Below are positions 32,006 to 64,000 of a stretch of DNA of 64,000 nucleotides, one piece after another; positions within the stretch are counted from its first letter, which is position 1; every line of letters begins with the position of its first letter. The notes below the pieces were generated by a model. It was not told where the DNA came from. It saw only the letters and a program-made list of their open reading frames with translations, and ran no database searches. A program made the translations under genes and the position numbers. Origin of the DNA: Balanoglossus misakiensis (taxonomy: Eukaryota > Animalia > Hemichordata); NCBI GenBank assembly GCA_040954595.2, contig CM082590.2:7316001-7380000 (forward strand), in the 5' to 3' direction.

Positions 32006-35000
32006 GTAAGATTGTCGTCATCAACATTTTCACTTGGAGGGCCATCTGAAAAACATGCATAAAACTACACGGTCATGGGAATATTTCAACACACCGTTTT
32101 TCAACTATAAAAGGACAGAATGAAAATAATAGGTGAGCACACAGCTTTTGAAAGTTGAATGTGCACCTTTAATGTTGAGCAGTGACTGTGCACCTTTAAC
32201 ATTTATACTTCACCTTGTTGTCATCTGTCACCTAGGAAACCAGGTTTATTTGAAAAAAATTGACACAGAAAGACTTAATTTTTGCTTGTTCTGTCATGTG
32301 ACCCCTATATACATTATGACCATAAAGATTAACCAGGGGACCATCTTTACGTTTCCAACAATTTCATTTTGTGAGCGATGTCATGCCTAAATGTCTTTTT
32401 CTGTTGTCGCCACTAAATAATACCAAATAATTTGTCGATTTACAGTAATGCTGACTGTTCTCACGACAATGAGTAGGGATGAAAAGATTTTTTGAAATCT
32501 CGGAAATCATAAAAGTACCTTGTGGATAAATGTGATCAGGTGCGGGGCTGGTGTACCGAAGGATATATTAAAAAGAGATTATATTGTAAAGAACAGGTAG
32601 ATTTAGGCTGCAAATGGCTAATCTTATAATCCCTGAACACATAAATGCTGTAATGAATTTTTCACATCTGATTTCCTGCTAAAAAGAGCAAGGTTTCATT
32701 TGGTGTTGCAGAATACGATTATATTTTGCTTGTGGATATATAGAGAATCAACGTTCAACCACACAACTTCCATCCCATTTGTATGAGATGAGAGTAAAAA
32801 TCTCACCCAAAATGAATAAATGGTAAACACTGATTATTCATTTTGGTGAGTTTTTCACTCTTGTGTCTACAAGTGATATGTAGTTGTGTGTAGTCAAATG
32901 TTGATTCACTATATATCCACATGTAGAATAACATAAATGGTGTCTTGTATCAAACATATTTGATGGAAAAGGGCAGCGAGAGAGAGATTTTGTCCCTTTA
33001 ACAAAGAAAGTTGTAAGAATTAGTGTCGTACGCTACACGCTTTGAATGACTCGCGAGATCTTATCTGACACCGAACGAGATCCGCAGATTTTTGTAACAA
33101 TTGCGCAAAAGATGTGACCAGGTGTAGGGAGAGCCTGTAAAGCATGTACTAACAAAGATTACATCAGATCAACGTTGAGATTTTCTGACCAAAAAAAATC
33201 CGGAAACGCACGGCTGTTATGAACTCATGTTCAAAGAGGCACCACATCAGATTAGTGTAACAATCTGTCAAAAGATTATCATCTTATTTCGAGTTTTTTA
33301 AGACCCTAAACATCATGTTGTTAGTTTGGTCTTGCTGTCAAGTTTTTCTGTGTGGATTCCCAGATCATAAATGAAGCACTCCCAATTTTTTTTTTTAGAT
33401 TCCACTGTGCTAATCTCAGCCAATTGTAAAAAAAAACATTTCTCTGATATTCCCTGAGGGCGCGCTTTCGAAAATCAAGAGCTCAGGTTTGATGAATAGC
33501 TCACAAGATCTTGATACACAGAGTCTTGGTAAATAAATCATATCAGTAAAGTGGTACGCAACTGGAAATTTGTTTTCGTTAAAATAAACCAAGGCTTTGA
33601 TATTTTTTGGGTGTGAATTCGAAAATCAAATATAATCATTCATGAATCATGAGCCTTGATATTTTAGGAACCACAGATACCACTGGGTCTTTGACCAATA
33701 TTCACCAAAACAGCTAAATGACATAGAAAAAAAATGAAATTTGACAGCCAAGTAAATCATAAATAGTGATTAAAAAATTTATGCGACTTTTTATTTGTAC
33801 GTTATTTTGGCTCTCGTGTATTTTGCGAAAATTTATTGCTCGCGAAAATAGTCCGTTTTACAGTATTGTACAACAGAACGCCATAAGCTTCCACAGTAGG
33901 GGTATAATAAGATACATTAACTGGAGACGTTGATTTGACGAACACTGCGATGAGATCGAAACAATTTGTATGGCAGTCATGTTCGACACGGCTTTCACAA
34001 GGAAAGTGAACAACTGTGAAAGGCAGCTTTCCAGTAAATCCTTAACAGAGCCAACGACTTAGACGACTGGAGCCAACTGGATTAAAATGTAGCAATTATG
34101 GCCGATTTTCTAGTTTACTGGATACGAGGACTTTAGTCAGACAACCGTAAATGCCACCGTTTTAAGTCCACCCAACCCACGGAAAAACTGACAGCGAATT
34201 TTCATTGCAAACCAGCTTTTTTAACGGAATTTTTTTAACGAATGGATATTTTTACACCATTTTCTTTAAAATATCTTAGATATCAAAAATTGTATGACTA
34301 AAATTTATGTAAAAAAAACTGATTTTTTACTTTGATGTTCATTTTGGAGAAAATACCATTTCATGTAAATTACGTGTTACCAGTATTTTAAGGATTTTGT
34401 TTTTAATGTTGAGGTTGGATGTAAACCGAGGACTTATAAGAGTTGTCATGGTTACATTCTGTGCAGAGAAAAACCAGGATTTGAATACGATCAATCAGTA
34501 TTATTTGAAGATATTAAAAGTTCAGTTTGCGTTTCAATAAGCGTCGTGTGACAAGACTTGCTGAAGATGATCGTACAATGCAAATCTTAAGGTCGTAAAT
34601 CCTCGCACAGCAGATATTTATGTCTAATGAATAACCGGGAAAACATGCATTCCGGGATTTAATTCGGAAGCAGTCGGTTCGGATCAGCTGCTCGTCCACA
34701 TCTGTCATATTTTGTTGACCATCTTGGTCCGGTTCGTTCTTTCAGGTTTTGAGGAAATTAGCATGTTTCATTTCCTGATGTCTAGCACTGGGACAAACAG
34801 TGCCTTGCAGGCAAAGGCTGTGATATAAGAACCGTTCAACAGTTATGACATCAGTGTTATAGGGACAAAGTCTCTCTCTCGCTGCCCTTTTTCTATTAAT
34901 CACGTTTGATACAAGACACCATTTATGTTATTCTACATGTGGATATAGAGTGAATAAACGTTCGACCACACACAACTTCCATCCCGCTTGTAGGATATGA

Positions 35001-38000
35001 GAGTAAAAATCTCACCAAAATGAATAAATGGTAAACACTGATTATTCATTTTGGCGAGTTTTTCACTCTCATGTCTACAAGTTGGATGGAAGTTGTGTGT
35101 GGTTGAACATTGATTCACTATATATCCACATGTAGAATAATATAAACAATGTCTTGTATCAAATATAATTAATGGGAAAAGGGCAGCGAGAGAGAGACTT
35201 AACATTCCGCCCCCAAGCAAGATGCGAGAAGTCGGCGATTACAAGTAATTGTAGACACTGAAAATAGTACATTGAAGTACAAACATTAAAGGTGCATAGT
35301 CACTGCTGCGCTCAACATTAAAGGTGCACATTCACCTTCCATAAAAAAGTTGTACACTCATCCGTTGTTTACATTTATGTCCATTTATTAAGGGCGGTGT
35401 TTCAATATTCTCCTGACTGTAGTTTAAGTGCATGTTTTTCAGATGGCCCTCCAAGTGAATACTTGTGATTGGCTCAGTCTGTAGTATCATTTGCATTTCA
35501 CGTAGTATATTCGTAGCATTTGCTGCTAGGATTTTGATAGATAATGCTGCCTTTAGAAAGGATTGTCAAATAAATTTTTTTTATTATTCAACATGGAAAA
35601 GGTCGATATGAACATACGTGTTCAAGAATATTCCATGATATATGAGCAACAAGGGGAATAGAAAATGAAGACTTGTATATGAACATGATAATTATCTCCA
35701 TCTGTCACTCATGTTAATTCTGTTTTGTGTTACCAGGGTTACGAAGGCTCATTATTAAAAGTCACTGGCAAACAGGGTAAAAATACATCGGTAAGTATGC
35801 TATAATTGATTTTCATCAAAATTTGCAAGTCAGATAATTTGTATCCTGTGAGTGTCGAAAGCTTGTAGGTAGACTACATTCTTGCATATCATGAAGATAT
35901 ACCGTAAAAAACGTGAAAATTAAAGTCGCGTAAAATAATTATCACAGATAACGATGCAGTTAGTGAAATACGAGAACACAAAAATTAATCCTCGCATAAC
36001 AGTTGCCTCTTTTGATATTGCAAAAATTTCCTGTCGCGAAAATAACTCGTTTTACAGTATATACCTGCATTACATGTTATCATTATAATGATTGTATCTT
36101 TAATAAAATTCTACCATTTCTATTTCTGCCCTCTTTCCGTGATCGAAATTTGCGTCCAATTTGAGCAACAGCAAGAACCACTCGATTTACAAATTTCATA
36201 CTCTAATTCCAATAGATATCACAGAACAGCATAAGGACCGCTCTTGTTCTGATTAAAGCACACATTAACCCTTTCAACGCCATAGTCAACTTGTCGTCAT
36301 CTTCCAAAATATGAAACCTCATAATTTTTTTCACATTTTTTCCCAAATTTTGATGGAGACTTGCAGACAATCGAAAATTATGTCCACATGGTCTAAAATT
36401 AAGGGAAAAAATTGGAGAAAAATGGGTGAAACAGAAAAAAATTGTTGCACCATCGAGAAAAATGCGGCATTCAAAGGGTTAAGTAGATCACGTTCTAGTT
36501 TCTGAGCAATTTAGGATGTTTCTTTCATCGCAATAAAGTAACGGTTTCATCAGCTCGCGTCTCCATCACTGTCATGACACATGACGACAGTAAACCAGGT
36601 GTTAATGTGTGTGGCTAAGGCAGTGTGTTAACACGAAGGGCTGGGTTGCCATATTTCAAATTTACAGGGACGAGTTCATTGTTTATCCGGTCACATCTGG
36701 AATAGCGTCTCTAGGGTCCCGGGTAGAAAAAAACTCACATCCCTTAGAATCAGATCACCTATTTCACAAATTGTAGAAGATTTAAAGGGACAGTGATGTA
36801 AAGTTTGATTGTTTCAAATTATTTTGTTGTGTCTAACAAAATATCACCCAATACCATGCCTGTCAGTTTAACAAAAAATGAACTAACATAAATGACATTG
36901 TTTATTAATAAATATTAAATAATGTCCATTTTTAAAGGCACCACAAATTTTTACATATCAACTTTTGAAGGGCTGTTCTTCAGTGGAATGAATATAGTAT
37001 TGCCCCTTTAATATATAAAATATTCACATAGCTTTCTGAAATCCAAAAATAAACATTTATTAGTAATATAGTCTTCTATAATTGAAGTATCTCAAATATT
37101 TCTCATCTGATATTTCGAGATAGAGATCACACAAATGCTAATTACTAGGTGAATTATATTACAGAAGGAATTTGATTTAATTTGTCACGTTTCTCATTTC
37201 CAATAAAATGCTATGAATAATCTTCCTGTGATTATCAAAGTTATTTCAAGCTAATTTCTGCCAGTGGCAGTTAAGTATAATCTATCCCTTAAATTCTTCA
37301 GTTTGGGATTGGCATATTTTACTTAATAATGCCTGGGTTTTTTAACATATTGGAATTTAGGCTTGGGAAAGTAGATTTTTCCTGGATTTTTCAAGCATAA
37401 ATGTTTAAAAGTAATTCAAGAACGATTATTCGTTTTGGCGAGTTTTTCACTCTTGTGTCTACAAGCGGGATGGAAGTTGTGTGTGGTCGAACGATGATTC
37501 ACTATATACCCACATGTAGAATAACATAAACGGTGTCTTGTATCAAACATAATTAATGGAAAAGGGGCAGCGAGAGAGAGACTTTGTCCCTTTAACAGAT
37601 AGTGGTATATACCTGCGAGACATACCATAGTATGTACCCTTGGGGCATTACCATTAGTTGGTTAGGGAGATAATGCAACAGCTGCTCACCAATGTTACTT
37701 AGACGTCCTCCTCTGGGATAGTTTCCGGAGCAGTCCTTCGCGATTTGAAATGTCAAAATCTCTGGGATCCCCACTTGAGCCGTCTAATTGCTAAAGTAGG
37801 CAATGTTTGCAGGATATAGCTTGTTATTGTGACTATTTTCGGAGTTGATCAACTGAAGTGTTCTCGTATCGTCCTGCTTTTTTACCGTTTTGAAATGTCA
37901 GTCGTTTAGATCACATAACTTGAGCTCGAATGATTATAGAAGTCTAGTACAAACCTCAGGGATAGATTATCAGAAGAATGATAGTCCTCCGAAATTTCAA

Positions 38001-41000: not shown

Positions 41001-44000
41001 CTGATCAGAATTCATGGAAAAGAGTACTGGATACTTAAAACTCAATAGAGCAATGTCCCATTCACATGGCTACGTATTCCATGAGCAATACAAGCCAAGG
41101 CATCCATGGAATATTAAGTTAAAATAGGCCATGTGTATAAACCTTTACGTTTAATGCTACTTAAACCTTTAAACGCCATAGTCAACTTGTTGTCATTTTT
41201 CACAAAAATTAACCAAATTCCAAATTTTTCCTTAATTTTGATCAAGACATGCAGACAATGGAAAATTATGGCCACTTTATCCAGAATTATGAGGGAAAAT
41301 GTGTGAAAATGATAATAATGTTGCATTACATTTTGACAACAAAACATGTGGCGTTAAGGATGCCCCCATTGTAATACATGTACTAGTATGGTATATTTTT
41401 TCTGCTTGTGTCATTATTTTGTTATTCCATTTAATGTATATATATTTTATTATTTTCAAATAGTTGACTCAATGGTTTGCTGATTGGCAACCAAAATAAA
41501 ATTATAGTTTCTCACATACCCACTGTAGCAATTTTTAGTTTTGCACCTTACCTGGTAAACTGAATCTAAGACAAAGTCTTACAGTCAGTATCACAGTATA
41601 ATCTCCAAGCTGCAAAAAATTCACTGTATTTTAAATATTTTGCATTTTATCCCAATCACAAATCACCAAAACAAATACAGCTTTGTCACATGCAAAAAAG
41701 TGCAATAAGCAGCAAAAACATCGCACTCAAAATACAGCATGTTCCCGTCACGATGGAGTAACTGAAATTTTATTTGGTATGGCCTCTGAGTATACCTGGG
41801 TGTGTATCACCAGCACACTCGGCCAAGCATGTGCCGTTATGCGTTATGCGTTATTGACTTTCGTCACTTTATTTTGACGCCCACAGGGAGTACGGTTTGA
41901 CCCCGATATTCCTCAAACACTACGGCTAGAATTCGCAAAATCCAACACCAAAGTTAGCAAACCCAAACAGTCATCTCCACAGCCGCCCAACGCACAGCAA
42001 GCACTCGGACCACATCTTACACCGAGAGAACCTTGTAAGTATATACGACACACGACCCTTCACCTTGTCACCTCCCACCTTTCACCTTTGCTCAGGTCAA
42101 AGTTCATTTTTCATGTGTAAATCTCTCATTACAGGTAAGTCGTATACTGTGAAAAGGGAAATTTTCGCGAACTTTGTTCAGTTGATGTGAGTGACTTCAA
42201 GGGGACGCTAGTTACATCACAATTTCCAACAAGGGGTATGGGGTTTTATTGGGCCAGTGGCATGAGTGAGGCTATCTAGGCGTTAGTTTTGGAAGCAAAG
42301 GGGACGAAGTACGGCCAGGTACTAGACGAGTTCAGGTTGTGAACACTGCCTGTGTGTGTCTGTGTCTATGTGTGTGTTGCTGATAATTCAGTATTATTCT
42401 CAGGAGCAAGGGTTTTAGTCTAAGTAGGATTTGTACATAGCCCTGTAGAGGCACGACCAGGAGAGATCCGACAGTGGTTCACTGACAATAGTAATATGAT
42501 CAACTTTAATAGGATTTAGGATTAGAGCTTGTCGCATGTCAAAACCCATTACTAAGAGATCTTCAACTGTCAGAAATTACGGAGGACGTGCAGCTTGTAG
42601 CTGAGTAGTCCCCAAGGCTGTTGCTATGGTGACTAATCTTGTAGCAACTCGGGTTTTGGCGTTTTCTGTGACCGTAGCAGACGGGTGCACACGCTTGTAT
42701 AGCCAATAAGACTAATTGATCTAGACTGTGGCATAAGCAGAATATGATAGTTGTAGACTATGGTCACCACATCAAGGGGTCTTTCTAGATTTTATTCGGG
42801 GGGTGGGGGGTAAAAAATATTAACAGGATTCCATCTAGTTTGTAGGATATGAGAGTAAAAATCCTGCCAAAAGGAATAAACGGTAACACCAATTATTCAT
42901 TTTGGCGAGTTTTTCACTCTCGTGTCTACAAGTAGGATGGAAGTTGTGTGTGGTCAAACGTTGGTTCACTATATATCCACATGTAGAATAACATAAACAG
43001 TGTATTGTATCAAACATAATTACTGGAAAAAGGGCAGCGAGAGAGAGACTTTGTCCCTTTAAACACACTGAATTGGAATAATCATCTGCTCCAGGTACAT
43101 TTTTGTCCTGTTCAACATTTCTATCTTGCAGTTTTTACCATAATCACAAGCGAATGTACCGGTAGTAACACTTTTTTCAAGGCTGTGATTTCTTGGAAAA
43201 TATGCATCAATTTCATGGTCATCCTGAGATATCTGGCAGGTTAATTTGACAAATAAATTCAGTGTCTCACAATTTTACAAATCTTTTTCTCCTTTTCTTA
43301 TTTCCAGACGAATTAGGTGCAGCTTTTTTTCCTGGTGCTCCAGAGGCATGGGTTCATCATCCGTAAGTTCTTGACGAATTCTTCCCAAGACATTTTCATC
43401 CCCAAAATTTTTAAACTTTTTGCAAGGAATAAAAACCTGTAAAGGGACAAGATCGCTAACTTTTGACATTATTTTTTTTTTGATCGTCTATTTATGTTGT
43501 TCTACACTCATAAAGTATAAACATCTAGAGACTTACTTTGAACAGGTGTTGGCATTCTCAATATGTGCAATTCCACCACATCGATAGTGTACATATGTAA
43601 TGCTTTTATCAAAAAGAATTTCAGCCCTCTTGCTATTTTCATTTGTGCAATTATATTTAGTTTGGTGTCAGTAAGCCCTTAGTCACAGCTTAAGTTAAAA
43701 GCCCACATATAGTACTTATTTAAACACATCTACCGTAAGATTAACATAATTTAACATATACACAATGCACACACAACATGTAACATAACATAGCTTATAA
43801 CATACAATAGCATAACTTAACATTACATACATAACGTAACGATGTAATGTAATGTAACATAACATCATGCAACATAATGTAACATGACATAGCAAAGCAT
43901 AACATAACATATATAACATACCGTAACATAATGTAATATAACATGACATGGAATGACATGACATAATGTAACATAACATCATGTAACATGACATAGCATA

Positions 44001-47000: not shown

Positions 47001-49577
47001 TCATATAGGATTACTACAGGCTTTAATCCTGTGGTATATAAGATTACTACAGGCTAATAATCCTGTAGTAATCCTATATAATGATATATAGGATTACCTG
47101 TATTAATCTTTTATGTTGGCATATGTCGTTGTATAGGATTACTACAGGACAGTAATCCTGTAGCAATCTTTTATGTTAATATATGCCATCATATAGGATT
47201 ACTACAGGGTGTTAATCCTGTATTAATCTTTTATGTTGATATATGCCATGGTATAAGATTACTACAGGCTAATAATCCTGTGGTAATCCTATATAATGAT
47301 ATATTGGATTACTACAGGCTGATAATCCTGTAGTAATCCTATATAATGGTATATGACCTGCTCTCGTATAGAATTTGTATAGCATTTCTATAGGATGTGT
47401 TCCAAAATCTGATAAGACTCCTATTGTGTTGTACAGGGAATCCTACTGGAATTCGTTGTAAGTATACTTGAGTTAACCGAAGGAACCGTTCTCTGTTTGT
47501 GCCCACAGCCACACCCCGCCCACCCAGCAATTGCATCCCCTCACCCCCATGCACCCTTACCACAGCCGCCTCTACCAACCAGCGTTGCGAGTGCAATGGC
47601 AGCAGTGACTGGAGGCCACGCCCCCTGCTCCACCCTCTTTGTGGCCAACCTGGGGACCCACACAACCGAGCAGGAGCTTAGGGAGCTTTTCGCCGGGTGA
47701 GTTGTCTCCATTCGGTAGCAAAAAAAAACTTGTCTGGGTATAGTAAAAATACGTTCTGATTTGTGTTTTTCGATTGTGTTATTTAAAAATTATGTTGCAA
47801 AAAATGGCACACATAACCGAGCAGGAACTTAGGGAGCTTTTCGCCGGGTGAGTTGTCTCCATTCGGTAGCAAAAAATGAAACCTGTCTGGATATTGTAAT
47901 AATACATTCTGATTGGTGTTTTTCGATTCTGTCATTGAAAAAAAAATTATATCGCAAAAAATGGCAAAATGAAACAATTGTCCAAATGTAGTAAGAGGTT
48001 TTTGGGGTTTTCTCAATTGGGTAGCAAAATATTTTCACTTTCTGAAAAACAAAAGAAAATTTGCAAAAAATGTTCGCTTTCCAAGAAGAAATGTTGAAAT
48101 ATGGAAACGGTTTTGACCAAACCGTAAAATAGTGTTCAAGGGTACTGGTTATTAATTTGCATATTTCTTTGGCAGGTTGCCAGGATTCAGTAGATTACGA
48201 TTTCACAACAAGGGTGGAGCCCCCTGCTGCTTTGTAGAATTTCAGGTAAGTTAAAGGACCTCTAAGTTACATATGCCCATATATGGTTAACAGGGCATTG
48301 GAATAACCATGTGGTGGCACACTTTTTTCGCATGGCCACCTAGTGAAAATCTTTGATTGGCTGTGGGTAAATTTGCATATATGACTATATGTTTAATTTC
48401 AGAAATATGTGCCTGTTATTGCATGCAATAATCGGTCTCTACTGTTTATTCATTTTGGCGAGATTTTTACTCTAATATCCTACAAATGGGATGGAAGTTG
48501 TGTGTGGTTGAACGTTGATTCACTATATATCCACATGTAGAATAACATTAACGATGTCTTGTATCAAACATAATGGAAAAAGGGCAGCGTGAGAGAGACT
48601 TTGTCCCATTATTTATTAGATCTCTCACATCCTAAACAATGAAATTCTAAGATGTTATTTTTTCTATTCTACAGAGCATTGTATTCGCAAACCAAGCACT
48701 CAACCAACTACAGGGCTATGTCATGTTGTCAAGTGACCGGGGAGGGCTACGAATAGAATTTGCCAGGAATAAAATGGGGGATGTAAGTACTATATACCCT
48801 TTTAACCCTTTCCCCCCTGTTTCCCGGTATAGTGGTCCAACTTTACCACGCAAAACTAGGGATTTAGGCCAAACCATTGTGGTGAAATTGTTAAACAAAC
48901 CATACTGGCTCAAACTTGCTCAAGGATTCAAATTTTTTTCATATTTGCCCCAGTTTCAAATACTCTACGTGCATGACTCTAATTTTGTGATTCTATTATT
49001 TATAGGATTGTCGATAGTTTGGTAGTTCCATAAAATCAAAATTGTGTGATCTGACATGTCATTATTAGTTGCAACAAACTTGTTCTTAGCAGACACACAA
49101 TATACTATAATTACTTGGGGATAGTTGTCTAAATGCCTTTTATAGGTACAACCATTAAAGCCTCTAGACATGCCACTTTTTGCATTATTTTCATGATTTT
49201 ATTTTCCAACTAAGATTGGTACATAGAAATAAGCTTCCTGATAGGTATACATGAACACCTTGTCGATGCCCGATTGTGACTGCATGTTGCAATTCGAACA
49301 CGCTATGTATTAAACTGGTGCCACACCAATTTAATCAGCCTCCATACAAACAGTACACAACTATTGTGGTATGCGTCGCCAAGAGATGACAAACTGATGC
49401 AAATACAAGTAATATGGCTTAATGGTGAGGATTTCAGAGGATAGGGAATATATTTGAAGTAATTTATTTTGGAAAAAAAATATGTGAAATGGGCTTTAAA
49501 CTATTTTTTATTCCTTTTTTTTATTTCAGACACAAAATAGACTTGACAACAATACACTGACTGCAGTTGCTCACTAG
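31928..49577 (+). CDS. RBPMS: RBPMS/couch potato/MEC-8 family RNA-binding protein with two RRMs, 5'-partial; join(31928..32005,35737..35790,39155..39217,41887..42034,43308..43362,44104..44176,47509..47696,48176..48245,48675..48782,49530..49577)
   Basis: Manual splicing gives 294 aa + stop with GT-AG introns and consistent phases. RRM1 reads [51 protein letters not shown]...[22 protein letters not shown], the family signature. RRM2 reads [10 protein letters not shown]...CFVEF...[16 protein letters not shown]. Confidence 0.93.
32731..32997. mobile_element. Family A MITE, left-truncated
   Basis: Ends TTTGTCCCT|TTAA. Confidence 0.8.
34861..35200. mobile_element. Family A MITE, near-full copy in RBPMS intron
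   Basis: Same sequence as other copies; right tip trimmed. Confidence 0.85.
35737..35790 (+). CDS. RBPMS: RBPMS-like exon: [18 protein letters not shown]
   Basis: taccag acceptor, gtaagt donor, 54 nt. Confidence 0.95.
36269..36478. mobile_element. Family F MITE (about 210 bp, piggyBac-like)
   Basis: TTAA|CCCTTT...AAAGGG|TTAA; related diverged copies at about 9600-9790 (reverse), 13537-13740 and 41165-41355. Confidence 0.72.
37422..37591. mobile_element. Family A MITE, right half
   Basis: Ends CTTTGTCCCT|TTAA. Confidence 0.8.
39155..39217 (+). CDS. RBPMS: RBPMS-like exon: [21 protein letters not shown] (RRM1 RNP1)
   Basis: Pyrimidine tract + ctacag acceptor, CAG/gtaagc donor, 63 nt. Confidence 0.95.
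39377..39581. mobile_element. Family G MITE (PIF/Harbinger Tourist-like)
   Basis: TAA|GGGGAGAACCATTTGATTTC...GAAATCAAATGGTTCTCCCC|TAA; related copies at about 24506-24712 and 59920-60137. Confidence 0.75.
41887..42034 (+). CDS. RBPMS: RBPMS-like exon: [49 protein letters not shown]
   Basis: ccacag acceptor, gtaagt donor, 148 nt, phase 0-1; family motif LRLEFAK-NTK. Confidence 0.95.
42838..43058. mobile_element. Family A MITE, partial
   Basis: Ends CTTTGTCCCT|TTAA. Confidence 0.8.
43308..43362 (+). CDS. RBPMS: RBPMS-like exon: [19 protein letters not shown]
   Basis: Long pyrimidine tract + ttccag, gtaagt donor, phase 1-2; resembles the RBPMS YEL...PE.W segment. Confidence 0.9.
43742..44067. 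repeat. Degenerate (ACATA/ACATG)n pentamer microsatellite
   Basis: Direct reading. Confidence 0.9.
44104..44176 (+). CDS. RBPMS: RBPMS-like exon: [24 protein letters not shown]
   Basis: tttcag acceptor, CAG/gtacaa donor, phase 2-0; resembles vertebrate AFTYP...LHAQ. Confidence 0.85.
45140..45375. repeat. Three spaced copies of ACCCAATCAGGACAAAGATTACAAATTGGTGCAAGTT
   Basis: At about 45145, 45227 and 45338. Confidence 0.7.
46851..47461. mobile_element. Foldback-like element: about 110-bp imperfect terminal inverted repeats around an array of GGATTACTACAGG/CCTGTAGTAATCC units
   Basis: AGATTTTGGAACATATCCTATAG at about 46904 vs its reverse complement CTATAGGATGTGTTCCAAAATCT at about 47388. Confidence 0.65.
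47509..47696 (+). CDS. RBPMS: RBPMS-like exon: Pro/His-rich linker + start of RRM2 ([24 protein letters not shown])
   Basis: ccacag acceptor, gtgagt donor, 188 nt, phase 0-2; RNP2 motif LFVANL. Confidence 0.9.
47659..47966 (+). repeat. 151-bp tandem duplication spanning an exon 3' end and its splice donor
   Basis: AACCGAGCAGGA(G/A)CTTAGGGAGCTTTTCGCCGG/GTGAGTTGTCTCCATTCGGTAGC occurs twice; GT at 47697 and 47848. Confidence 0.9.
48176..48245 (+). CDS. RBPMS: RBPMS-like exon: [24 protein letters not shown] (RRM2 RNP1)
   Basis: ggcag acceptor, CAG/gtaagt donor, 70 nt, phase 2-0. Confidence 0.92.
48428..48607. mobile_element. Family A MITE, right half
   Basis: Family A arm ending GAGAGACTTTGTCCC. 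Confidence 0.8.
48675..48782 (+). CDS. RBPMS: RBPMS-like exon: [36 protein letters not shown]
   Basis: ctacag acceptor, gtaagt donor, 108 nt. Confidence 0.92.
49159..49495. mobile_element. Family I TTAA-target MITE (Kolobok-like)
   Basis: TTAA|AGCC...GGCT|TTAA; related copies at about 6725-6866 and 23900-24186 (reverse). Confidence 0.7.
49530..49577 (+). CDS. RBPMS: RBPMS-like terminal coding exon: [15 protein letters not shown]
   Basis: Strong T-tract + tttcag acceptor, phase 0, TAG at 49575-49577, followed by long AU-rich UTR-like sequence. Confidence 0.75.
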   Translation, partial: TQNRLDNNTLTAVAH

Positions 49578-54076: not shown

Positions 54077-54272
54077 TTATAAAAACGATTCTGTCTCTTC
54101 CTTGTTGTTTGCGTGCAAATCGTCTGAGTTTACTACAGCGGGCTTTTTCCCGCTTTCTACTGCGATTTCCACTTCCTTCTCCTCCTCTGCTACCTCCTTG
54201 CCCATGACTGCGTCCACCAACCCAGCCGCCATGCAGTGACTGGTGCAGTTCACGCCTGTGCGAAGCGAGTCT
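54077..54272 (-). CDS. SLC1 exon 10 (TM8b + C-tail): DSLRTGVNCTSHCMAAGLVDAV...EETESFL*
   Basis: ttcag acceptor, phase 2, TAA stop at 54079-54077. Confidence 0.92.
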
Positions 54273-57200
54273 CTGAAACAGAAGAAATAAATATTTACGC
54301 TGGGTACAGAACTATGCAATTGATCCTGATGGGTCCGTCATAGCCTCTTTGCAAATGACCTGCCACTATTAAAGGGACAAAGTCTCTCTCTCACTGCCCC
54401 TTTTTCCATTAATTATGTTTGATACAAGACACCGTTTATGTTATTCTACATGTGGATATATAGTGAATCAATGTTCAACCACACACAACTTCCATCCCAT
54501 TTGTAGGATATGAGAGTAAAAATCCCGCCAAAATGAATAAATGGTAAACACCGATTATTCATTTTGGTGAGTTTTTCACTCTCGTGTCTACAAATGGGAT
54601 GGAAGTTATGTGTGGTTGAACGTTGATGCTCTATATATCCACATGTAGAATAACATAAACGAGTCTTGTATCAAACATAATGAATGGAAAAAGGGCAGCG
54701 AGAGAGAGACTTTGTCCCTTTAACAAATTTAATCAGAAAAAAATTCAATACATGTATTCTCTTCAACTTTACTCAACATATTTGCATACCAAGACAGTTG
54801 TGTACTCTTGTATAATTAAGAGAATCACTCTACGAGAATGGCAGTGAAAAGAAGAATATTTGCATTATTTTTCCATCCAATATTATTGTGTTCTATATAC
54901 ATGTATTTAGTTCTAACCCAGTTGGCTGCCTTTATAAACAGACTACTCCACTTCAAGTCTTGTATACACATGAGTTAAACCATTGTTCCAAATGTTCTAT
55001 AGCATATTCTGTAGATTTTGATGCTTCCAGAAAATTCAATAGGAAACGGGAACAAAACTGTGCAGAAATCTATAGACATCCATAGAAATTCTATAGAAAT
55101 TTGATAGACTTCTATAGATATCAGTAGAATATTTGTGACAAATTACTACTCACAAGAGCCATTCCATTGAGACCAGCAGTCCTATATTGTCAGTGGGTGT
55201 GCCAACTGCACTGCACACCGTTACTATGGAAACAAGACTGGCACTTGGAACAGCAGGCAGGCAAAGTCCCATTACCCAGGCAACAATGCTAAAAACCAAA
55301 AAAGGGGGGTTACGGCTTTAATTATGTTTGATGCAAGACACTTTATTTTTATGTCCACGTTTAGACCAATTTCAGCATTTTTAGTTGATGCAAAACAAAG
55401 AATTTATTTACTCTGGCCAAATTTCCATACTTACACCATTGTGATAACATGGCCAAAGTTCATGGACATGTTGGCCGTTTGTGACAGATAGAGGGCGCCA
55501 CTGATGATAAAGAGGGCTGACCCGTCACTCTTCATGGCCACGTTCATAGACACAACATAGTTTGTGATCTTCTTGTTGATCTTGTTATTTACTTCACAAC
55601 ATCGGAATATCGCTGGCATTGTAGCGGCACTATTACAAAGGAAGACAAAATCTTGCAAGTTAAATTCATTTGGGAAAGAAGTTCGGGTGATGCAACAGTG
55701 TACTGGGTACTACATTATCTTTCTCGTACTCTATGATAATAAGGTGAGTGTTTTTGCATATTTATTTACTTTTTAAGCACCGCCAATGAATTTCTCAACT
55801 GATGGAAAGGGATGGTCAAAATAGACTCGTTTCTATCCCAACAGAGGGCAACAGTCGTCTGTTCTAGAAGGACAAGTACAGTATCCACGACCATTTTTCT
55901 CATCTTAGCCATGTCATTGCGCATGACGCGACCAGTCGATTACACATGCGCAATGACGTGTTATGATGAGATGATCGTGGGATCGGGAGAGCAATTACAG
56001 CGCAGCGCCCTCTTTGGGCAAGGCACGAGTCTCTGAACAAAACATCAACGAGAGTGTAGGGTAAAAGTGTCTGACCGATTATTTAAAAATGTGTCTCACT
56101 TGGTTTTCGTGATCATGGACATGAGAATTGCGCGTGCGCATCTGGTGATGAAGATATACGGGTTCTTCCTGGTGAAGATGAAGTATATGGCCGACAGCGT
56201 GACGAATTCATGGATACACAACCCGATGATGACGTCAGCGCTGAACAGACCCAGCGACCTCCAGACTCCAATGAGATTTTCAACTTTCAACATCGATTTG
56301 CATATTAGGCTAGGTGTACCAATTGGTAAGAGCCTGTATGACAAGAAAGCAAAATATGCAAATATGTTGGAATGCAAGAAGTTCACGTCCCTAGTATGTA
56401 GTTATAGCTTTTACTTCTGCTCTCGGAGAAAAAATACTTGGTGAATTTCAACAGGAAAGTAAGCTTTAATATTATTCGAATTTGCCAATCACTAATCGTT
56501 TCACAGAGTGTCTTCAATACAGTGCACGTTTACTATATATACGTGCATATAACTATGATAGGACAGACCATTTTGCATTAATATTCAGTTATAGGATTAT
56601 GAGACGCTCTTTCTGATTGGGTACGTTGAAATATAGCTGAAACTTTTCATTATGAAAAGTCAAACATACCATAGGTAGAATGTCAGGATTTTTATGGAGA
56701 TGAGACGCAACGCGGACATAAACTGGAACATTGTACGCGTCGCCTCTTTCTCTATACACATGGCTATACCGAACACTGCTGAGAACACCAGCAATCCTGT
56801 GGAAAAGCCAAGACAAAGCAAAAATATTTTAGTGGAGTTACAGAAGTTCCAATCTGATTAAAATCAGATGTTTTAAAAAAAAAAAACACGTCGCCGTTCC
56901 CTACTTAATCAGATTGCAGAAGTTCCAAACTGGCGACAATATGCCTTGCAATGAATTATTATACACTGAAATCCACAAAAAAACACTCCCAGAAATGAGG
57001 AGATTTTGTTCTGTGGGGAGAACACGCAAGGTTTCATGGGAAATCGTGGACCGGAAGTGCGGAAATTGACCAGACGACGCTTATGCTCTAACACGGAAGA
57101 GGTCGATTTTTGCGTCAAAATACGAAGAGGCATATGGTTTTTAAATGAAACGACACCCAGTACCCGTTGATACGCTCACTGGTGAGTACCCCACGTATGT

Positions 57201-60200
57201 TTTTCGACTGAAATATTGTATATCGGAAAGATATTGTAGTTTTTCGTCTGCTTCCGTGGCGAGTGTTGGGTCCGCATGTTTTGCACTGCATGACCCTATC
57301 CCCTTGCGGACACGCGGAAAATCCGTTTATTTCGTGTTTACGGAAATATTTAGGTGAAAGACGTTTTTCTGAAGCGTCTATGTACCTCTGGTACAGACAG
57401 GGTTATCTTTGACATGCAAATAGCAAAATGAACGAACATTAGAGGTCAACTCAGGTCACTGTCAGGTCACGCTAAGGACAGGGTCAGGCTCGGGCTTTTG
57501 TAAACATGGAGGCGTCCATCTTGTTTATGATCACGTGGTCTTTGATTCATTATACAGTCAAATTTGTATAAAGTGGCCAGTCAAGGGACTTTGCTAAACT
57601 GGCCTTTATAGACAGGTGGTCTTTATAATTATAGACAGGTCAATTAATGCACATGTCAGTTGCACAGGGACTGTAACATAGTGGCCACTATATAGAGGTG
57701 GTCACTAACACAGGTTTGACTGTAATACTGTAATACACTTTATTTTCGCCAGTTGAAATTTTCGCGATATCGAGAGAGGCCACTGTTTCGCAAGTATTAA
57801 TTTTCGCGTTCTCTTATTTCATTCACTGCATCGTTATCTTCAAATAAAATTACGCGACTTTTTATTTTCACGCTATTTTGGCTCTCGCGTATTTCACGAA
57901 AATTTATTGCTCGCGAAAATAAAGTGTTTTACAGTATGCTGACCAGGTCTTTGGCCAAGTTCGGGACCTTGTACGTTCTCGTCGGGTTGTCTCATTGCGT
58001 CGTCTGGTCATTTTTCGCACTTCCGCGATTTCTCATGAAACCTGGCGCGTTCGCGAGATTCGCATTGGGTGTGTTAGAACTGCTATATTGGAAGGGACGC
58101 ACAGAGCAATGTTTTCAAACAAAACCGATCGTCTTTCTGTATGTCTGTCTGTCTGCCTGTCTGTCTGTTAAAGGCAACCACTGTCCGTCTGTGCGAAAAG
58201 AGACAAGTAGACATTGTAGACAGACAGACCAATGGATAGACAAACATACAAACAGACAAATAGCTAGCCACGGAGACATTGAGTAACTAACACTAAAAAG
58301 AGGACTCATATTATAATGTGCAAAGGGGAATACACTTTATAACCCTTCTGTTATTTTTTTTTGGCAACAGTGACGTACCAAGAAGATTTGTCCCACCGCC
58401 ATATTCCAGTGATTTAGACGAAACAGCGAAAACACTGGCCTGTGGTGGCGCTGTGACGTTTGTTGCTGTCAGATTTCCATCAACAACGTACGATCCACCA
58501 TTGCCACTTGGTGTTACGCTCTCATTGTTCCCGGCCAAAACAGCGCCATCAGTCGTTGGATAGATTTCTTCAAATTCATAAGAGGTAAAGATCTATACGC
58601 AAAACATTAATATTCATTGTTAGTTTACGTCAATTTGTGAGTTACCTATATTATGTAAATTGGAGGTGACTGTATACCTTTAAGCAATCATATGATGAAG
58701 GGAGGGACGGGACATCATTTTTGTACAGGCCTGTTTATCTCTCGTTCACTCTGTTCTTTAATGCATGTAAAAATGTAGCGACAATTTGTCTGTAAAATGA
58801 TTACCGTTTGTATACAGGCTTTCACCAGATTATTTGGAATCAGGTTTCTATGAAAAAATACAGAAAAGAAAACTTCATTAAATCAGTAATGTATTATAAC
58901 ACTTTGTAGATGACAAATATGTAGGGTTATGGAATAATGATTTTCGGGGACGTTGGTAGTTTTGTTAAATTCTGCCCTGGCCCATTGGAATTCTATGAGA
59001 ATTTTGCTGCTGGCAAGGGTGTATGTTTGGTGTGATTTACAGAATACCAGTGTTCTCCCCAGTGCAATCATTACATGTGCATGGTTGATGCCTCTTTATT
59101 TTTGACAAATATTCTTAATTGTTTCTTGGAGGTTTACCTCAGTAGGTCAGCTATGACGTCCTGTGTCTCGTAGTGCGCCGGCTTGAAATCCTCATTCTCA
59201 TTTCCGGTTCCGATTTTCCCCGGGTTAATGGCCAGTGTGAGAGCTGTGCCCACAATCACGGCAATGAACACAACTGATATCATGAAGGTGAAACTGATGG
59301 CGCTCATCTTTCCGTTGGTTTTCAGTTCAAGCGAGGATGTAGCTGTAATAATTGAAGTACCGGTATATGAGGCTGGATATACACATCAAGACCATGGGGC
59401 AGAACACTGTACTTAGGCCTATCTGTCTTTTGACGAGTCGAACAATTACAAGGTACGTCCTCATAATACCATAGTAAGTATCAAGCTAATGTAACTCACA
59501 AGTACAAACAGTGGTTAGACAGAACTGTAAAACACTTTATTTTCACGAGCAATAAATTTTTGCGAAATACGCGAGAGCCAAAATAGCGTGAAAATAAAAA
59601 GTCGCGTAATTTTTTTTGAAGATAACGATGCAGTGAATGAAATAAGAGAACGTGAAAATTAGTACTCGCGAAACAGTGGCCTCTCTCGATATCGCGAAAA
59701 TTTCAACTCGCGAGAATAAAGTGTTTTACAGTATTTCATGGATGTGCACTTCAATAGTTAAGTTTTCATGTCTCTTTCATGTAGTTAGCGAAAATCTAAA
59801 CACAGAGTGATATTTCAGGAGCAACATATCCAAATATCGCCCTCCCCGGTATACCGGTACATGCAATGTACACATAGTGTGTCTGCGAGATTCGAAAATA
59901 GGTCTGTTGGTGTTAAAGCTTACGGGAGAATCGTTTGATTTCTGGGGATGGGGGATTTGGGGAGGAAGAATTTTGGGCAGATGGTGCAGAGAAAAGAAAA
60001 CATTTCTTCAACAGCACCTTGAGGAAAAAGTGGGTTACGTTTGGCAATATAAAATTACTGAGACAGAGGCTGCAAAAATACTTATACCAAATTGCCCCCC
60101 CCCCCCCCCCCCCCCCGATCTCAAATGGTCCTCCCCTTAGCCGAAAGATCACAAGTCGCCATATTTACCTACGACGACACTGGATGTCAATAGCGGTATC

Positions 60201-61188
60201 ACCATGCAGTACAATCCGCGCATGAACAGCTCACCGGGCAATCCCAACCACATTATGACGTCATCAGATGGATTTAGAGGCTGCAAAACAACAATACAGT
60301 TTTGAGCATGGTTTGTTCAATCTTTTCTGATTCCATGAATATGGAACACACAATGAAATATTGTTCGGTGTTGACCTAAATGTTTGAGTGGTCCATCGGC
60401 TTATATACCTAGATAGTTGAACTGCAATACGCAAGAAATTTATACTAATTGTGTGAAGGGATTTTTATCAAGGTGTCTCCCCCTCTTCTCATGAGAATTA
60501 AAATATGTTTGTGTGTGACACAACCCAGCGTAGCATAGCACTGCACAGTACAGTGTAACACAACACAAAACCACACAACACAACGCCACAACATAATACA
60601 CCATATCACATCACACAACACAACACAACACAACGAGAAACAAAACACAGCCTCACAACACAACACAGCGCAACACAACAAAACAAAACGCAACAAAACA
60701 CATCACAGGCTCACAGCACAACACAGGGACTCTCTCTCGCTGCCCTTTTCCCATTAATTATGTTTGATACAAGACACTGTTTATGTTATTCTAGATGTGG
60801 TTATATAGTGAACGTTCAACCACACACAACTTCCATCCCACTTTTAGTGAAAAACTCGCTAAAATGATTAATCGGTGTTTACCATTTATTCATTTTGGCG
60901 AGATTTTTACTCTCATATCCTACAAAAGGGATGGAAGTTGTGTGTGGTCGAACGTTGATTCACTATATATCCACATGTAGAATAACATATTAAACGGTGT
61001 CTTGTATCAAATATAATTAATGGGAAAGGGGCAACGAGAGAGAGACTTTGTCCCTTTAACATTGTTCTTACCCTGAGGATAAAGACGAGCGCAAATCCAA
61101 CAACGACACCAATCATCGTCAATATAAAAAGTAGATTGTCCTTAACCACATTCTTCCAGCAATTTTTACTGCATTTCACTCGAGCCAT
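54077..61188 (-). CDS. Divergent SLC1A/EAAT-family (dicarboxylate/amino acid:cation symporter) transporter, 525 aa; complement(join(54077..54272,55154..55288,55435..55629,56100..56333,56670..56796,58379..58592,58805..58847,59138..59342,60169..60280,61072..61188))
   Basis: Ten GT-AG exons total 1578 nt, in phase, with no internal stop. Family segments present: PGELFMR, INPG, DLLRNLIPNNLVKAC, TNLLGLLVFS, PIG, TRKNPY, AATMP, D.LRT..N. No specific ortholog assignable. Confidence 0.92.
54373..54719. mobile_element. Family A MITE, full copy in last SLC1 intron
   Basis: TTAA|AGGGACAAAG...CTTTGTCCCT|TTAA. Confidence 0.88.
55154..55288 (-). CDS. SLC1 exon 9 (HP2-TM8a): IVAWVMGLCLPAVPSASLVSIVTVCSAVGTPTDNIGLLVSMEWL
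   Basis: tttag / gtgagt boundaries, phase 2-2. Confidence 0.9.
55435..55629 (-). CDS. SLC1 exon 8 (HP1b-TM7): AATMPAIFRCCEVNNKINKKITNYVVSMNVAMKSDGSALFIISGALYLSQ...
   Basis: aatag / gtaagt boundaries, phase 2-2. Confidence 0.92.
56100..56333 (-). CDS. SLC1 exon 7 (TM5-TM6-HP1a): LLPIGTPSLIC...YFIFTRKNPYIFITRCARAILMSMITKT
   Basis: tacag / gtgaga boundaries, phase 2-2. Confidence 0.92.
56670..56796 (-). CDS. SLC1 exon 6 (TM4c-TM5): GLLVFSAVFGIAMCIEKEATRTMFQFMSALRLISIKILTFYLW
   Basis: ccacag / gtatgt boundaries, phase 1-2; this frame is not in the ORF track. Confidence 0.9.
57555..57722. mobile_element. Family C MITE
   Basis: TA|CAGTCAAA...TTTGACTG|TA; same interior as the 4872 copy. Confidence 0.78.
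57728..57934. mobile_element. Family B MITE, reverse orientation
   Basis: Reverse complement of the 59525 copy; TA flanks. Confidence 0.8.
58379..58592 (-). CDS. SLC1 exon 5: extracellular loop with N-glycosylation sequons (NES, NLT, NVT) ending GGTNLLG
   Basis: tatag / gtacgt boundaries, phase 0-1. Confidence 0.88.
58805..58847 (-). CDS. SLC1 exon 4: NLIPNNLVKACIQT
   Basis: catag / gtaatc boundaries, 43 nt; matches the EAAT NxFPxNLVxAC motif. Confidence 0.92.
59138..59342 (-). CDS. SLC1 exon 3 (TM3): ATSSLELKTNGKMSAISFTFMISVVFIAVIVGTALTLAINPG...DVIADLLR
   Basis: tacag / gtaaac boundaries, phase 1-2. Confidence 0.9.
59525..59731. mobile_element. Family B MITE
   Basis: Near-identical to the 25026 and 63383 copies. 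Confidence 0.8.
60169..60280 (-). CDS. SLC1 exon 2 (TM2): PLNPSDDVIMWLGLPGELFMRGLYCMVIPLLTSSVVV
   Basis: tgcag / gtaaat boundaries, phase 0-1; PGELFMR motif. Confidence 0.92.
60518..60725. repeat. Degenerate (CACAA)n microsatellite
   Basis: Direct reading. Confidence 0.9.
60726..61055. mobile_element. Family A MITE, ends 16 nt from SLC1 exon 1
   Basis: Family A sequence ending CTTTGTCCCT|TTAA. Confidence 0.85.
61072..61188 (-). CDS. SLC1 exon 1 (TM1): MARVKCSKNCWKNVVKDNLLFILTMIGVVVGFALVFILR
   Basis: AAGATGG start context, gtaag donor. A possible acceptor (tctag) 7 nt upstream suggests an unlocated 5' exon. Confidence 0.85.
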
Positions 61189-61679: not shown

Positions 61680-61996
61680 TTATATTATACCAGTATATTG
61701 ATGGTGTAAATCACGCTATTTGATTGGTCGAGACACGACACGTGGCCGTGATATATTAGCCATATACCACAGTCATATATCATAGTTAAAGAAAATGCCT
61801 TTTTAAAATGTTTTATGCAAAGTTTCAATATACTGGCATAATATAATAGCAATAAAACACCCCCAGCCATGGTATACCACTCGATTTTGACCAGTTCAAC
61901 TCCATATACGCACTCGCTATCGCTCGTGCGTATATGTCGTGAACTGGTCAAAATCTCGTGGTATACCATGGCTGGGGGTGTTTTATTGCTTAAATA
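61680..61996. mobile_element. Family D element, second copy, upstream of the SLC1 start codon
   Basis: Near-identical to 10197-10513, same orientation. Confidence 0.7.
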
Positions 61997-63382
61997 GTTC
62001 CAATCGTGTTCATACATGTAGCTCTGCATGGCAGGGCTGTGTACGTCTTACAGCGATGCCTTCCCACCACATGCATGGCCGTAAGACACGTACACAGCCC
62101 TGCCACGCAGAGCTATTATACACATACCACTGCTCTAACCTACACGGTTCAACTTCAGTGGTTCACCTCAAACACGGTGACACGATAACACAATCAAGAA
62201 CCACGCCTCGAGAAGTGCCCGTATAGTGGGGGCCTGATCGTATATCACTAATAATTAAGTCACCAGCTACAAAGGATCTATTGTCTGGCGCCCCATAGAA
62301 ATGCCCTGGGCAATGTCGACGTCCTTATCTATCTGTACTATAGAAAGTGAATAATGTTTATCAATTCTAGATCTGTGCTTTTGTAGCCATGTTATGTAAC
62401 ACACACATCGATTCCCACAGTTGTCTATTTAAGACAAGAATTGTGTGTGGGAGTCTAGCGTGGTCTCACAATATTGGTGCATGGTAATATTACACAGAGA
62501 CTGGACTTGCTGCATGTATACGGTATAAACCGAATCATTTCTTAATTAAATACGTAGATTTAAGCAGATTTTATCGGGAGAAATCGGTCAGAAAGGTCCA
62601 GTCGCGTAAGTCACGTGATTGTCTACGCTGAGCGTAAAGTTTAATGTCCAACCCAAGCAAAGATTCGAAAAGTAGAAACAGTCACGCATGAATCAAGCGT
62701 CAGTAATGAGAAAATATTACACACGCAAAACACCAAGGGGCTGGTGAGTTTGTCCCAACCGTGACCAAAAAGCCATGTTAACTCACAGTCCGTGTATTAA
62801 TTGAGGGGAGTGTGGTTAATACTACGCCCATCCCTTCATGAACATGTTACGTGGCTGTGCAAGTTTACGGGACGTGCTTCGGATGGGAGGGGGAAGGGGG
62901 AGGGGGTTTGGAGTGGAGTGGAGCCCTAGAATTTACAGGTATGTGCACCCGGCTGACTTCTCAGAGATCAGTTTACAAATCCTCACTGTTTAGGTGTTTT
63001 CGTTCGTGAATAGACATTGTTGTACACAGCGACCTGTCATTCACTTGTCGTGGGGAAAACTGTACCTGGTTGACTCCAACCAGTATTTGCGTGTATCATA
63101 AGTATAAGAAACTTGGTGGTGTTCAAAATTGTCCTAAATATGGTCCATACATACCTGGCCTACTATTCTCGTCGTGGGAGCTAGTACGGTTACCGCTGTT
63201 CCGCTCAGCTAACTCGCAAAACACTGCTGGGTTTGGAGGCTGGTTATTCTATACGAACTGGGCCTAGGCACTTCAGTGAATGGTGGTGTCGATGGAATAC
63301 ACAATAGAACTTAGCATTTGAATGGTCCGGTTTTTCGGGTCGTCAATCCCTGGCTATAGTGACTCTCCCAATGCCCACAATA

Positions 63383-63598
63383 CTGTAGTGTAAAACACTT
63401 TATTTTCGCGAGCAATTAATTTTCGCCTAATACGCGAGAGCCAAAATAGCGTGAAAATAAAAAGTCGCGTAAATTGTTATTGAAGATAACGATGCAGTGA
63501 ATGAAATAAGAGAACGCGAAAATTAATACTCGCGAAACAATGGCCTCTCTCGATATCGCGAAAAATTTAACTCGCGAAAATAAAGTGTTTTATTACAG
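63383..63598. mobile_element. Family B MITE
   Basis: TA|CTGTA...TACAG|TA with family B interior. Confidence 0.8.
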
Positions 63599-64000
63599 TA
63601 ACAACTGTGATGCCACGCGTGTATTTTATTCTCAGCTCATACTAGTATACACACATATTTGCGGTGTAGAGACCAGGACATTGTCAGGGGGCTGTCTACA
63701 GGGCTAACCCCTCTACCGGGTCGCCAAATCATGTTTGCAAGGGGAAAGGAGTGGGCGGGTCCCCCGAACAAGAAATGTGCCCTACTTTATAAGGCTAGGA
63801 ACTCTCTCGCTGCCCCTTTTTCCATTAAAGATGTACGTTCAGTAAAATTGAAAGTATTGTCATTTTTTTTAATTGTGGATTTTTGTATGTATAATGAAAA
63901 TCCGTAATAAAATATAGGGGTCACCACGCTTGTTTTTGAAATACATGCAGAGCCATGAATTTGGTCGATAATAGAAGAAAACTGTTGACTCAGCATTTTT

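Follow-up and report, generated by a model that had tools for sequence, protein, structure and literature searches.

A conserved SLC1 protein with substituted ion sites in the acorn worm Balanoglossus misakiensis: a candidate Na+-independent relative of the glutamate transporters

Ion coupling in glutamate transporters centres on the NMD motif of transmembrane helix 7 (TM7) and on the aspartate D405 (sites are numbered here as in GltPh unless stated otherwise), and to our knowledge the characterised animal members of the SLC1 family depend on Na+. In GltPh, Na1 partly opens helical hairpin 2 (HP2), Na3 makes the NMD motif flip, and M311, aided by S93, wedges HP2 open; the mutation D405N mimics the Na1-bound state, and the double mutant M311A/D405N binds aspartate without Na+ (PMC9171649; this and all papers named below are cited from excerpts). 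D405 also takes part in K+ binding (PMC6769379). Uncoupled SLC1 members exist among prokaryotes (PMC12668577), and in ApcT and CaiT a lysine or arginine takes the place of Na2 (PMC6925253). The SLC1 phylogeny of PMC2873418 covers, in the excerpts available, vertebrates only. Here we describe an SLC1 gene in 64,000 nucleotides of the hemichordate Balanoglossus misakiensis (assembly GCA_040954595.2, contig CM082590.2, positions 7,316,001 to 7,380,000; hereafter the window). It encodes an intact membrane protein of this family, in which the substrate residues are retained, the ion ligands are replaced and the new residues are conserved among relatives.

The gene lies on the reverse strand at 54077..61188, from an ATG at 61188 to a TAA at 54077, and is the only SLC1 gene detected within the window by tblastn. 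Joined by coordinate, its ten coding exons give 1578 nt and 525 amino acids with a single, terminal stop, and all nine introns are of the GT-AG type; the intact frame over ten exons described in an earlier sequence-only reading is thereby confirmed. That reading placed the gene at 54077..59342. Its residue count is correct and includes exons 1 and 2, but 59342 marks where exon 3 begins and the true end is at 61188. All ten exons match, in order, the Ptychodera flava orthologue XP_070547260.1 (P0001; tblastn). The Pfam SDF domain (PF00375) was found in six of the nine exon translations tried (exons 2, 3, 6, 7, 8 and 9), with 39.6 bits for exon 8 on its own against a curated cut-off of 27.9, and P0001 matches it with 224 bits across residues 22-481, as expected for the SLC1/DAACS family.

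Site numbers were carried to the gene through a gap-free alignment of P0001 to EAAT1 and EAAT2 chains (EAAT, excitatory amino acid transporter). The GltPh numbers 92-93, N310-M311-D312, T314, D394, R397, N401 and D405 follow PMC12668577, the equivalences of EAAT1 E406 with Q318, D476 with D394 and R479 with R397 follow PMC6769379, and R276/S363 and M395/R477 follow PMC4924932. Since no gaps occur through HP1, TM7, HP2 and TM8, the register is unambiguous; exon 8 itself aligns to EAAT1 chains without gaps, KSDG pairs with the EAAT motif NMDG and the histidine of NCTSH with D405, and Ile392 of the window protein corresponds to the position altered in structure 7awq (E386Q). The HP2 numbers, T308 and G306 are our own placements, made by offset. 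None of the TM7 and TM8 residues highlighted by the sequence-only reading is moved elsewhere by this alignment, and its motifs lie where it put them: FMISVV at 59286-59269, KSDG at 55532-55521, DSLRTGVN at 54271-54248 and the histidine of NCTSH at 54238-54236.

The replaced ligands are spread over several exons. In exon 3 (59138..59342; TM3) Val100 and Val101 (59274-59269) take the place of the Na3 ligands T92 and S93. Exon 8 (55435..55629; HP1b and TM7) reads K384-S385-D386 for NMD, and Ile392 (55508-55506) occupies the position of the EAAT proton/K+ glutamate (EAAT1 E406, GltPh Q318). Exon 10 (54077..54272; TM8) has His473 (54238-54236) in place of the D405 carboxylate, which belongs to Na1 and to the K1 site, and Ser463 at the EAAT Arg395 position; the acidic pocket of EAATs, D394, R397, T398 and N401, is retained as D462, R465, T466 and N469. 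Exon 9 (55154..55288) encodes HP2, with a clade-specific tip LPxVPSxS, and TM8a with the change D390E, and exon 7 (56100..56333; TM6 and HP1a) carries Lys349 (56107-56105) at the position of GltPh R276. Judged by its residues, the protein is a real and conserved SLC1 member with an acidic-substrate pocket and, by its ion sites, not an EAAT. Nor does it fall in the ASCT subfamily: R465 is retained, the Na+ sites are altered, and its clade is separate from SLC1A4/5.

Not every replacement bears on the ion to which it had been ascribed. The change N310->K is real, but it was attributed to Na1 as well; the N310 side chain serves Na3, so that N310K bears on Na3, and N310 presumably supplies only backbone to Na1. 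The change of YE to FI argues against K+/H+ coupling but not against Na+, as the Na+-dependent ASCTs have F317 and Q318 in 5/5 proteins. Likewise M311 is indeed replaced by serine, but this by itself does not abolish a Na+ site, since [M/S]311 is counted as a complete Na+ site in PMC12668577.

We compared these sites among 20 hemichordate, 12 spiralian, 10 canonical EAAT and 5 ASCT proteins (a partial isoform, P0028, was excluded from the counts). In the hemichordate-spiralian clade, D394, R397, N401 and Ser314 are present in 32/32 proteins, Met311 is lacking in all 32, and position 318 is always isoleucine, against glutamate in 10/10 EAATs and glutamine in 5/5 ASCTs. Position 405 is histidine in 27 clade proteins, tyrosine in four and aspartate in one (15, four and one among the 20 hemichordates), Glu390 is found in 30/32, and at the HP2 tip Pro353 occurs in 31/32 (20/20 hemichordates) and Ser359 in 32/32. 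Three traits are restricted to hemichordates: a basic residue at 310 (Lys in 17, Arg in one, and Asn in two proteins that both carry Arg311), the loss of the T92/S93 pair (Thr92 in 1/20 and Ser92 in 3/20; Ser or Thr at 93 in 3/20), and the move of a basic residue from TM8 to HP1, where position 276 is basic in all 20 (13 Lys, seven Arg) and Arg395, present in 27/27 other proteins, is absent. D312 is kept in 20/20 hemichordates. The S65 equivalent is Ser, Thr or Cys in 20/20 hemichordates, six of the 20 have Lys or Arg at 311, next to Na2, and four lack one TM7a residue at the T308 position. Spiralians retain T92 (11/11), N310 (10/12) and, in most cases, D312.

Some members depart from these patterns. 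Two gastropod-type proteins (P0020, P0021) read SAN and a scallop protein (P0031) NAN at the NMD motif. D312 is gone there as well, and molluscs would thus have given up Na3 independently. P0008 of Glandiceps has Asp405 within the histidine clade, a possible reversion, and P0010, P0011, P0015 and P0016 combine KKD with Tyr405. More widely, Arg occurs at 391 or 395 in 75/76 bacterial scan proteins; one basic residue near 276/391/395 appears to be a general SLC1 rule, which the hemichordates would meet in the GltPh way. The 276/395 swap equals the GltPh arrangement (PMC4924932, PMC7780239) and looks like compensation within a site that still works. A TM7 motif could be parsed in 263 of 297 stored proteins (34 unparsed) and was NMD in 207, in what is a biased sample.

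Evolutionary rates and charge follow the same division. Among 335 core columns, S314, D394, R397, N401, D312 and I318 belong to the slowest 5% of sites in hemichordates, and the new residues K310 and H405 stand at the 24th and 22nd rate percentiles. T92, S93, T308 and M311 stand at the 79th, 54th, 90th and 69th percentiles in hemichordates and at the 5th, 29th, 23rd and 15th in the ten canonical EAATs, a pattern suggesting that these Na+ ligands were released from constraint and that the new residues at 310 and 405 are held. Over ten buried sites, hand-picked from known positions, the net charge is -3 in 10/10 EAATs, -1 in 8/12 and 0 in 4/12 spiralians, and in 21 hemichordate proteins 0 in 16, +1 in four and -1 in one.

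The gene had been read as a lone oddity, but it belongs to an old group. A search with exon 8 matched one protein, P0001 (81% over the exon), with which the window protein shares 69% identity over its full length and both KSDG and NCTSH. When P0001 was the query, acorn-worm proteins (Ptychodera, Glandiceps, Saccoglossus) took the first 19 places among the 120 matches listed, followed by molluscs and then by canonical EAATs and ASCTs; a search of representative sequences added one Ptychodera and two Lingula proteins. KSDG-type SLC1 proteins do occur in other acorn worms, the orthologues sharing the KSDG and SH motifs. The orthologues are P0001, XP_077978643.1 of Glandiceps talaboti (P0002) and XP_002734772.2 of Saccoglossus kowalevskii (P0003), which in RefSeq carry the automatic label 'excitatory amino acid transporter-like'. 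A quick maximum-likelihood tree built from 51 proteins unites these and the window protein in one orthologous group (support 100 in the Shimodaira-Hasegawa-like approximate likelihood ratio test, SH-aLRT, used for all trees), which nests in a 21-row hemichordate clade (SH-aLRT 100). This hemichordate expansion, with 20 database paralogues, groups with mollusc and brachiopod proteins, and in a further quick tree with 13 bacterial outgroups, all NMDG-type and none H+-coupled, the hemichordate and spiralian proteins form a single clade among animal SLC1s (support 100). Convergence at the ion sites was tested as a source of this grouping and is not supported, as SH-aLRT is still 99 without the TM3 core, HP1, TM7, HP2 and TM8 (the partial P0167 being omitted from this tree). 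The nesting of the clade inside the canonical EAATs is weak, with support of 81-83 in the presence of the bacterial outgroups and no resolution after removal of those segments. Having deuterostome and protostome members, the clade would date from their common ancestor. Eight Ptychodera flava members (P0011, P0012, P0014, P0016, P0018, P0019, P0028, P0188) share the same largest-sequence size on record (40,130,686), which suggests a tandem cluster on one chromosome.

Beyond these groups few relatives emerged. Among the matches listed in our word-limited searches no chordate, arthropod or echinoderm protein belonged to the clade, which does not imply their absence. A profile search gave no new member among the best 120 of 182 matches, the matches of the search of representatives (a single exon against 1.84 billion sequences) were mostly canonical NMDG proteins, apart from the two Lingula proteins and the Ptychodera protein given above and four NAD/NGD-type fragments, and the ESM Atlas yielded chordate EAAT clusters only. 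Against prokaryotic genomes the clade profile gave 72 pattern matches and no confirmed relative, and against metagenomes one of 168, a canonical NMDG protein. A metagenome contig (L081, 172-1407) encodes a eukaryote-like SLC1 protein that retains NMDG and D405, has Glu390 and lacks any basic residue at positions 276, 391 and 395. Full-text literature searches, which mostly did not extend to subscription papers, turned up no functional or phylogenetic description of the clade.

The sequence-only reading preferred repurposing over decay, and the comparison upholds this preference. Core residues 223-484 are identical to the Ptychodera, Glandiceps and Saccoglossus orthologues at 211, 197 and 195 of 262 positions (74-81%). 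Over the 62 positions of the extracellular loop the identities number 23, 13 and 20, and over the 41 of the tail 8, 10 and 9. The KSDG and SH motifs are identical in all three orthologues, the three genera presumably representing three acorn-worm families; the split between Saccoglossus and Ptychodera dates back several hundred million years. With the motifs the same across three enteropneust genera, the substrate residues invariant in 32/32 proteins and the old Na+ ligands fast-evolving in hemichordates, a repurposed rather than decayed gene is supported. In the mollusc-type branch, three members have 476-554 amino acids and the longest Logan contigs on record measure 1.9-2.1 kb, which suggests spliced transcripts.

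The predicted structure agrees with the family assignment. P0001 was modelled with AlphaFold2 on the basis of a 28-row alignment, and the model (predicted local distance difference test score 76.5, predicted template modelling score 0.70) keeps the SLC1 helices and the TM7 break at the KSD motif. Among PDB structures Foldseek ranks glutamate-bound human EAAT2 first (E 1.5e-24, target TM-score 0.90), and comparison with EAAT2 and EAAT3 in like states gives target TM-scores of 0.89-0.93, the modelled scaffold including HP1, a broken TM7, HP2 and TM8.

We consider it moderately probable that the protein carries acidic amino acids independently of Na+ and K+, Lys384 serving in place of the Na3 ion and His473 taking the position of the Na1 carboxylate. 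With the side chain of M311 and the carboxylate of D405 both gone, HP2 would be able to open and close Na+-free, as in GltPh M311A/D405N, with low-affinity binding. The amine of Lys384 would pair with the retained D312 (D386) in the pocket that Na3 has vacated, which is now hydrophobic, and hold the TM7 loop binding-ready; by standard geometry an extended lysine should reach about 5 Å from C-beta, about the distance of Na3 from N310. The comparative pattern is consistent with such a built-in lysine, as K/R310 accompanies the loss of T92/S93 and D312 is kept in 20/20 hemichordates. Because the TM7 glutamate and D405 are lost, the K+/proton machinery of EAATs would be removed (PMC6769379). As neither a Na+ nor a K+ gradient would be available to drive it, the elevator would transport Asp, Glu or a comparable amino-acid anion either downhill or by exchange, and in an animal cell its role would mostly be the release or swap of acidic amino acids, not their concentration. 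One proton on His473 is possible, and the charge count would then leave both the loaded and the empty carrier neutral.

The sequence-only reading had supposed a concerted loss of all cation sites. On our comparison the loss is instead a two-step one: the changes at Na1, at the K+/H+ site and in HP2 are shared with molluscs and brachiopods, and those at Na3 and of the HP1 basic residue are hemichordate-only. The ancestor of the clade would have had a small residue at 311 and His405, and hemichordates would later have fixed a positive charge beside D312 as the other Na3 ligands were lost. The wider proposal is tentative, and we place it a little short of probable: that an SLC1 subfamily dating back to the protostome-deuterostome split left Na+ coupling in two steps, and that in hemichordates Lys310 came to act as a permanent substitute for Na3 and His405 as the proton switch of Na1. 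The outcome would be either an electroneutral carrier of H+ and acidic amino acids or an anion channel gated by amino acids, multiplied into many paralogues in acorn worms.

Several points weigh against a carrier free of Na+ and K+. Na2 and part of Na1 consist of backbone carbonyls, which the substitutions leave untouched, and Na+ is high in seawater. P0008 has Asp405, and spiralians keep N310 in 10/12 and T92 in 11/11 proteins, so that Na+ binding at Na3 may persist in some members. The gain of K310 and the loss of T92/S93 fall on one branch and are a single event, giving no independent support, and the sites of the charge count were chosen by hand. [M/S]311 is compatible with Na+ coupling, and site residues are an imperfect guide because coupling can also be set allosterically (PMC12668577). 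In GltPh, N310S and D312N nearly abolish Na+-driven opening of HP2 (PMC9171649), so that a changed residue 310 may simply break gating. Changes affect the tips of both HP1 (S278 to Asn in this subclade) and HP2, so that Asp or Glu may not be the substrate. Transport or current measurements for any clade member were not found in the literature.

The alternative that survives best, though we regard it as unlikely, is a Na+ symporter of reduced stoichiometry or a Na+-dependent exchanger, with one Na+ at the backbone site Na2 (or at Na1 with a histidine nitrogen), lysine in place of Na3, and no K+. ASCTs without the TM7 glutamate and with Phe317 still use Na+ (as PDB titles indicate), and the spiralian members retain T92, N310 and mostly D312. 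Furthermore, Ser311 makes a complete Na+ site in prokaryotic members (PMC12668577), and GltPh D405N remains functional (PMC6769379). However, T308 and M311 evolve fast in hemichordates (90th and 69th percentiles), the TM7a deletion affects 4/20 and a Lys or Arg lies beside Na2 at 311 in 6/20, HP2 is remodelled with Pro353 in 20/20, and a buried net charge of 0 or +1 in 20/21 proteins is unfavourable for a cation.

Slightly less likely is an amino-acid-gated anion channel or sensor, which would bind substrate and act through the chloride pathway or through signalling by its tail, with little net transport. A positive charge at 276/395 sets the anion selectivity of the uncoupled conductance (PMC4924932) and is present at 276 in 20/20 hemichordates, as is Ser, Thr or Cys at the S65 equivalent, but the HP1 basic residue also tunes the affinity and turnover of transporters (PMC7780239). 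Some 20 paralogues over three acorn-worm genomes would suit receptors, although such an expansion equally fits nutrient carriers; similarly, class I PDZ-type endings occur in 12/21 hemichordate proteins but are equally common in canonical EAATs (5/10), and no signalling domain is fused to PF00375, the only domain found. A decaying or dead duplicate with drifted ion sites is highly improbable, being contradicted by the ten-exon open frame with canonical splice sites, by a core with 211, 197 and 195 of 262 residues identical to the orthologues while loop and tail diverge, and by the KSDG and SH motifs shared across families.

Of the remaining exons, exon 1 (61072..61188) holds the ATG and TM1, exon 2 (60169..60280) TM2 with the S65-equivalent Ser73 retained, both beyond the coordinates given earlier; exon 4 (58805..58847) covers TM4a-b, exon 5 (58379..58592) the variable extracellular loop with N-glycosylation sequons at 182, 199 and 204, and exon 6 (56670..56796) TM4c-TM5. 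All exons were placed by the joined frame, complemented by tblastn to P0001 (1, 4), Pfam SDF (2, 6), the site tables (2, 3), sequence comparison (5) or alignment (7-10). The protein ends in ESFL (54091-54080), P0001 in DTFL and P0002 in ESFL, and endings of the form [DE][ST]xL occur in 6/21 hemichordate and 0/22 other proteins; we take this form to fit a NHERF-type PDZ ligand, hinting at an epithelial plasma-membrane location.

Repeats surround and interrupt the gene. An element of ~350 bp in intron 9 (54369-54723, this copy 89% identical to its own reverse complement) and intron 1 (60730-61059) has further copies near 1434-1630, 15626-15984, 21157-21515, 28096-28449, 32722-33005, 34857-35200 and 42829-43062; dispersed and self-complementary, it looks like a non-autonomous DNA transposon resembling miniature inverted-repeat transposable elements. 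A second dispersed repeat of ~215 bp (57721-57935, 59524-59738, 63386-63600, 25021-25241; copies 92-95% identical) has two oppositely oriented copies inside introns of the SLC1 gene. Just upstream of the gene, a stretch of 320 bp (61680-61999) with an internal palindrome is 98.4% identical to 10197-10516, 51 kb away, and is probably a recent mobile element. The convergent neighbour, with exon-like frames at 41878-42117 and 47416-47697 on the forward strand and a weak RRM_1 match (E 0.0064), presumably resembles RBPMS/couch potato.

If the wider two-step proposal holds, the glutamate-transporter fold would in hemichordates have its first case of a built-in cation, and the protein would be the first animal SLC1 member running without sodium. 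Uncoupled SLC1s are already known in bacteria; an animal clade that replaced its ion sites and kept the substrate pocket appears undescribed. The clade offers a natural series for the roles of Na+ at each site (mollusc NAD/His, gastropod SAN/His, hemichordate KSD/His, KKD/Tyr and NRD/His), with P0008 (Asp405) and the KKD/Tyr405 paralogues as natural controls, and bears on whether lysine can replace Na3 as in the Na2 of ApcT, and on how transport and chloride-channel functions separate. Moreover, many marine-invertebrate 'EAAT-like' genes read as glutamate-clearance or glial markers probably have another function.

Among known systems, the EAATs (EAAT1-5, i.e. SLC1A1-3, 6 and 7; 7xr4 for EAAT2, 6s3q/6x2l for EAAT3, 5llu/7npw for EAAT1) share with the window protein PF00375, the fold (target TM-score ~0.9), ~28-30% identity and D394/R397/T398/N401; the latter differs in KSD for NMD, His for D405, Val/Val for T92/T93, Ile for the proton/K+ glutamate, Lys276 without Arg395, and remodelled HP1 and HP2 tips. 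The ASCTs (ASCT1/ASCT2, SLC1A4/5), which work in exchange mode, also have Phe317 and no TM7 glutamate, and K+-independent exchange is by analogy likely a shared mode; they keep NMD, T92/T93 and D405 and replace R397 (by Cys in four and Thr in one of five), the opposite of the window protein. With GltPh it shares the basic HP1-276 without a basic 395 and the lack of a TM7 glutamate, whereas wild-type GltPh has all three Na+ sites, couples three Na+ and is 18% identical (Foldseek comparison). The GltPh mutant M311A/D405N, with its Na+-free aspartate binding (PMC9171649), comes near the clade's natural pair of Ala/Ser311 and His405. The prokaryotic uncoupled AncInt/ExtInt proteins are a precedent for Na+-free binding and movement of aspartate, and the H+-coupled GltP, GltT and DctA likewise have a hydrophobic 92 and have lost D405; the H+-coupled signature (ExtH), however, combines hydrophobic 92, L311 and N405 with N310 retained, and the window protein, with S311, H405 and K310, matches it in one of three residues (V92) (PMC12668577). 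In ApcT (K158) and CaiT (R262), of the LeuT fold, a basic side chain in place of Na+ gives Na+ independence (PMC6925253); there, in another fold, this is established by structure and assay, and here the same solution is proposed from sequence.

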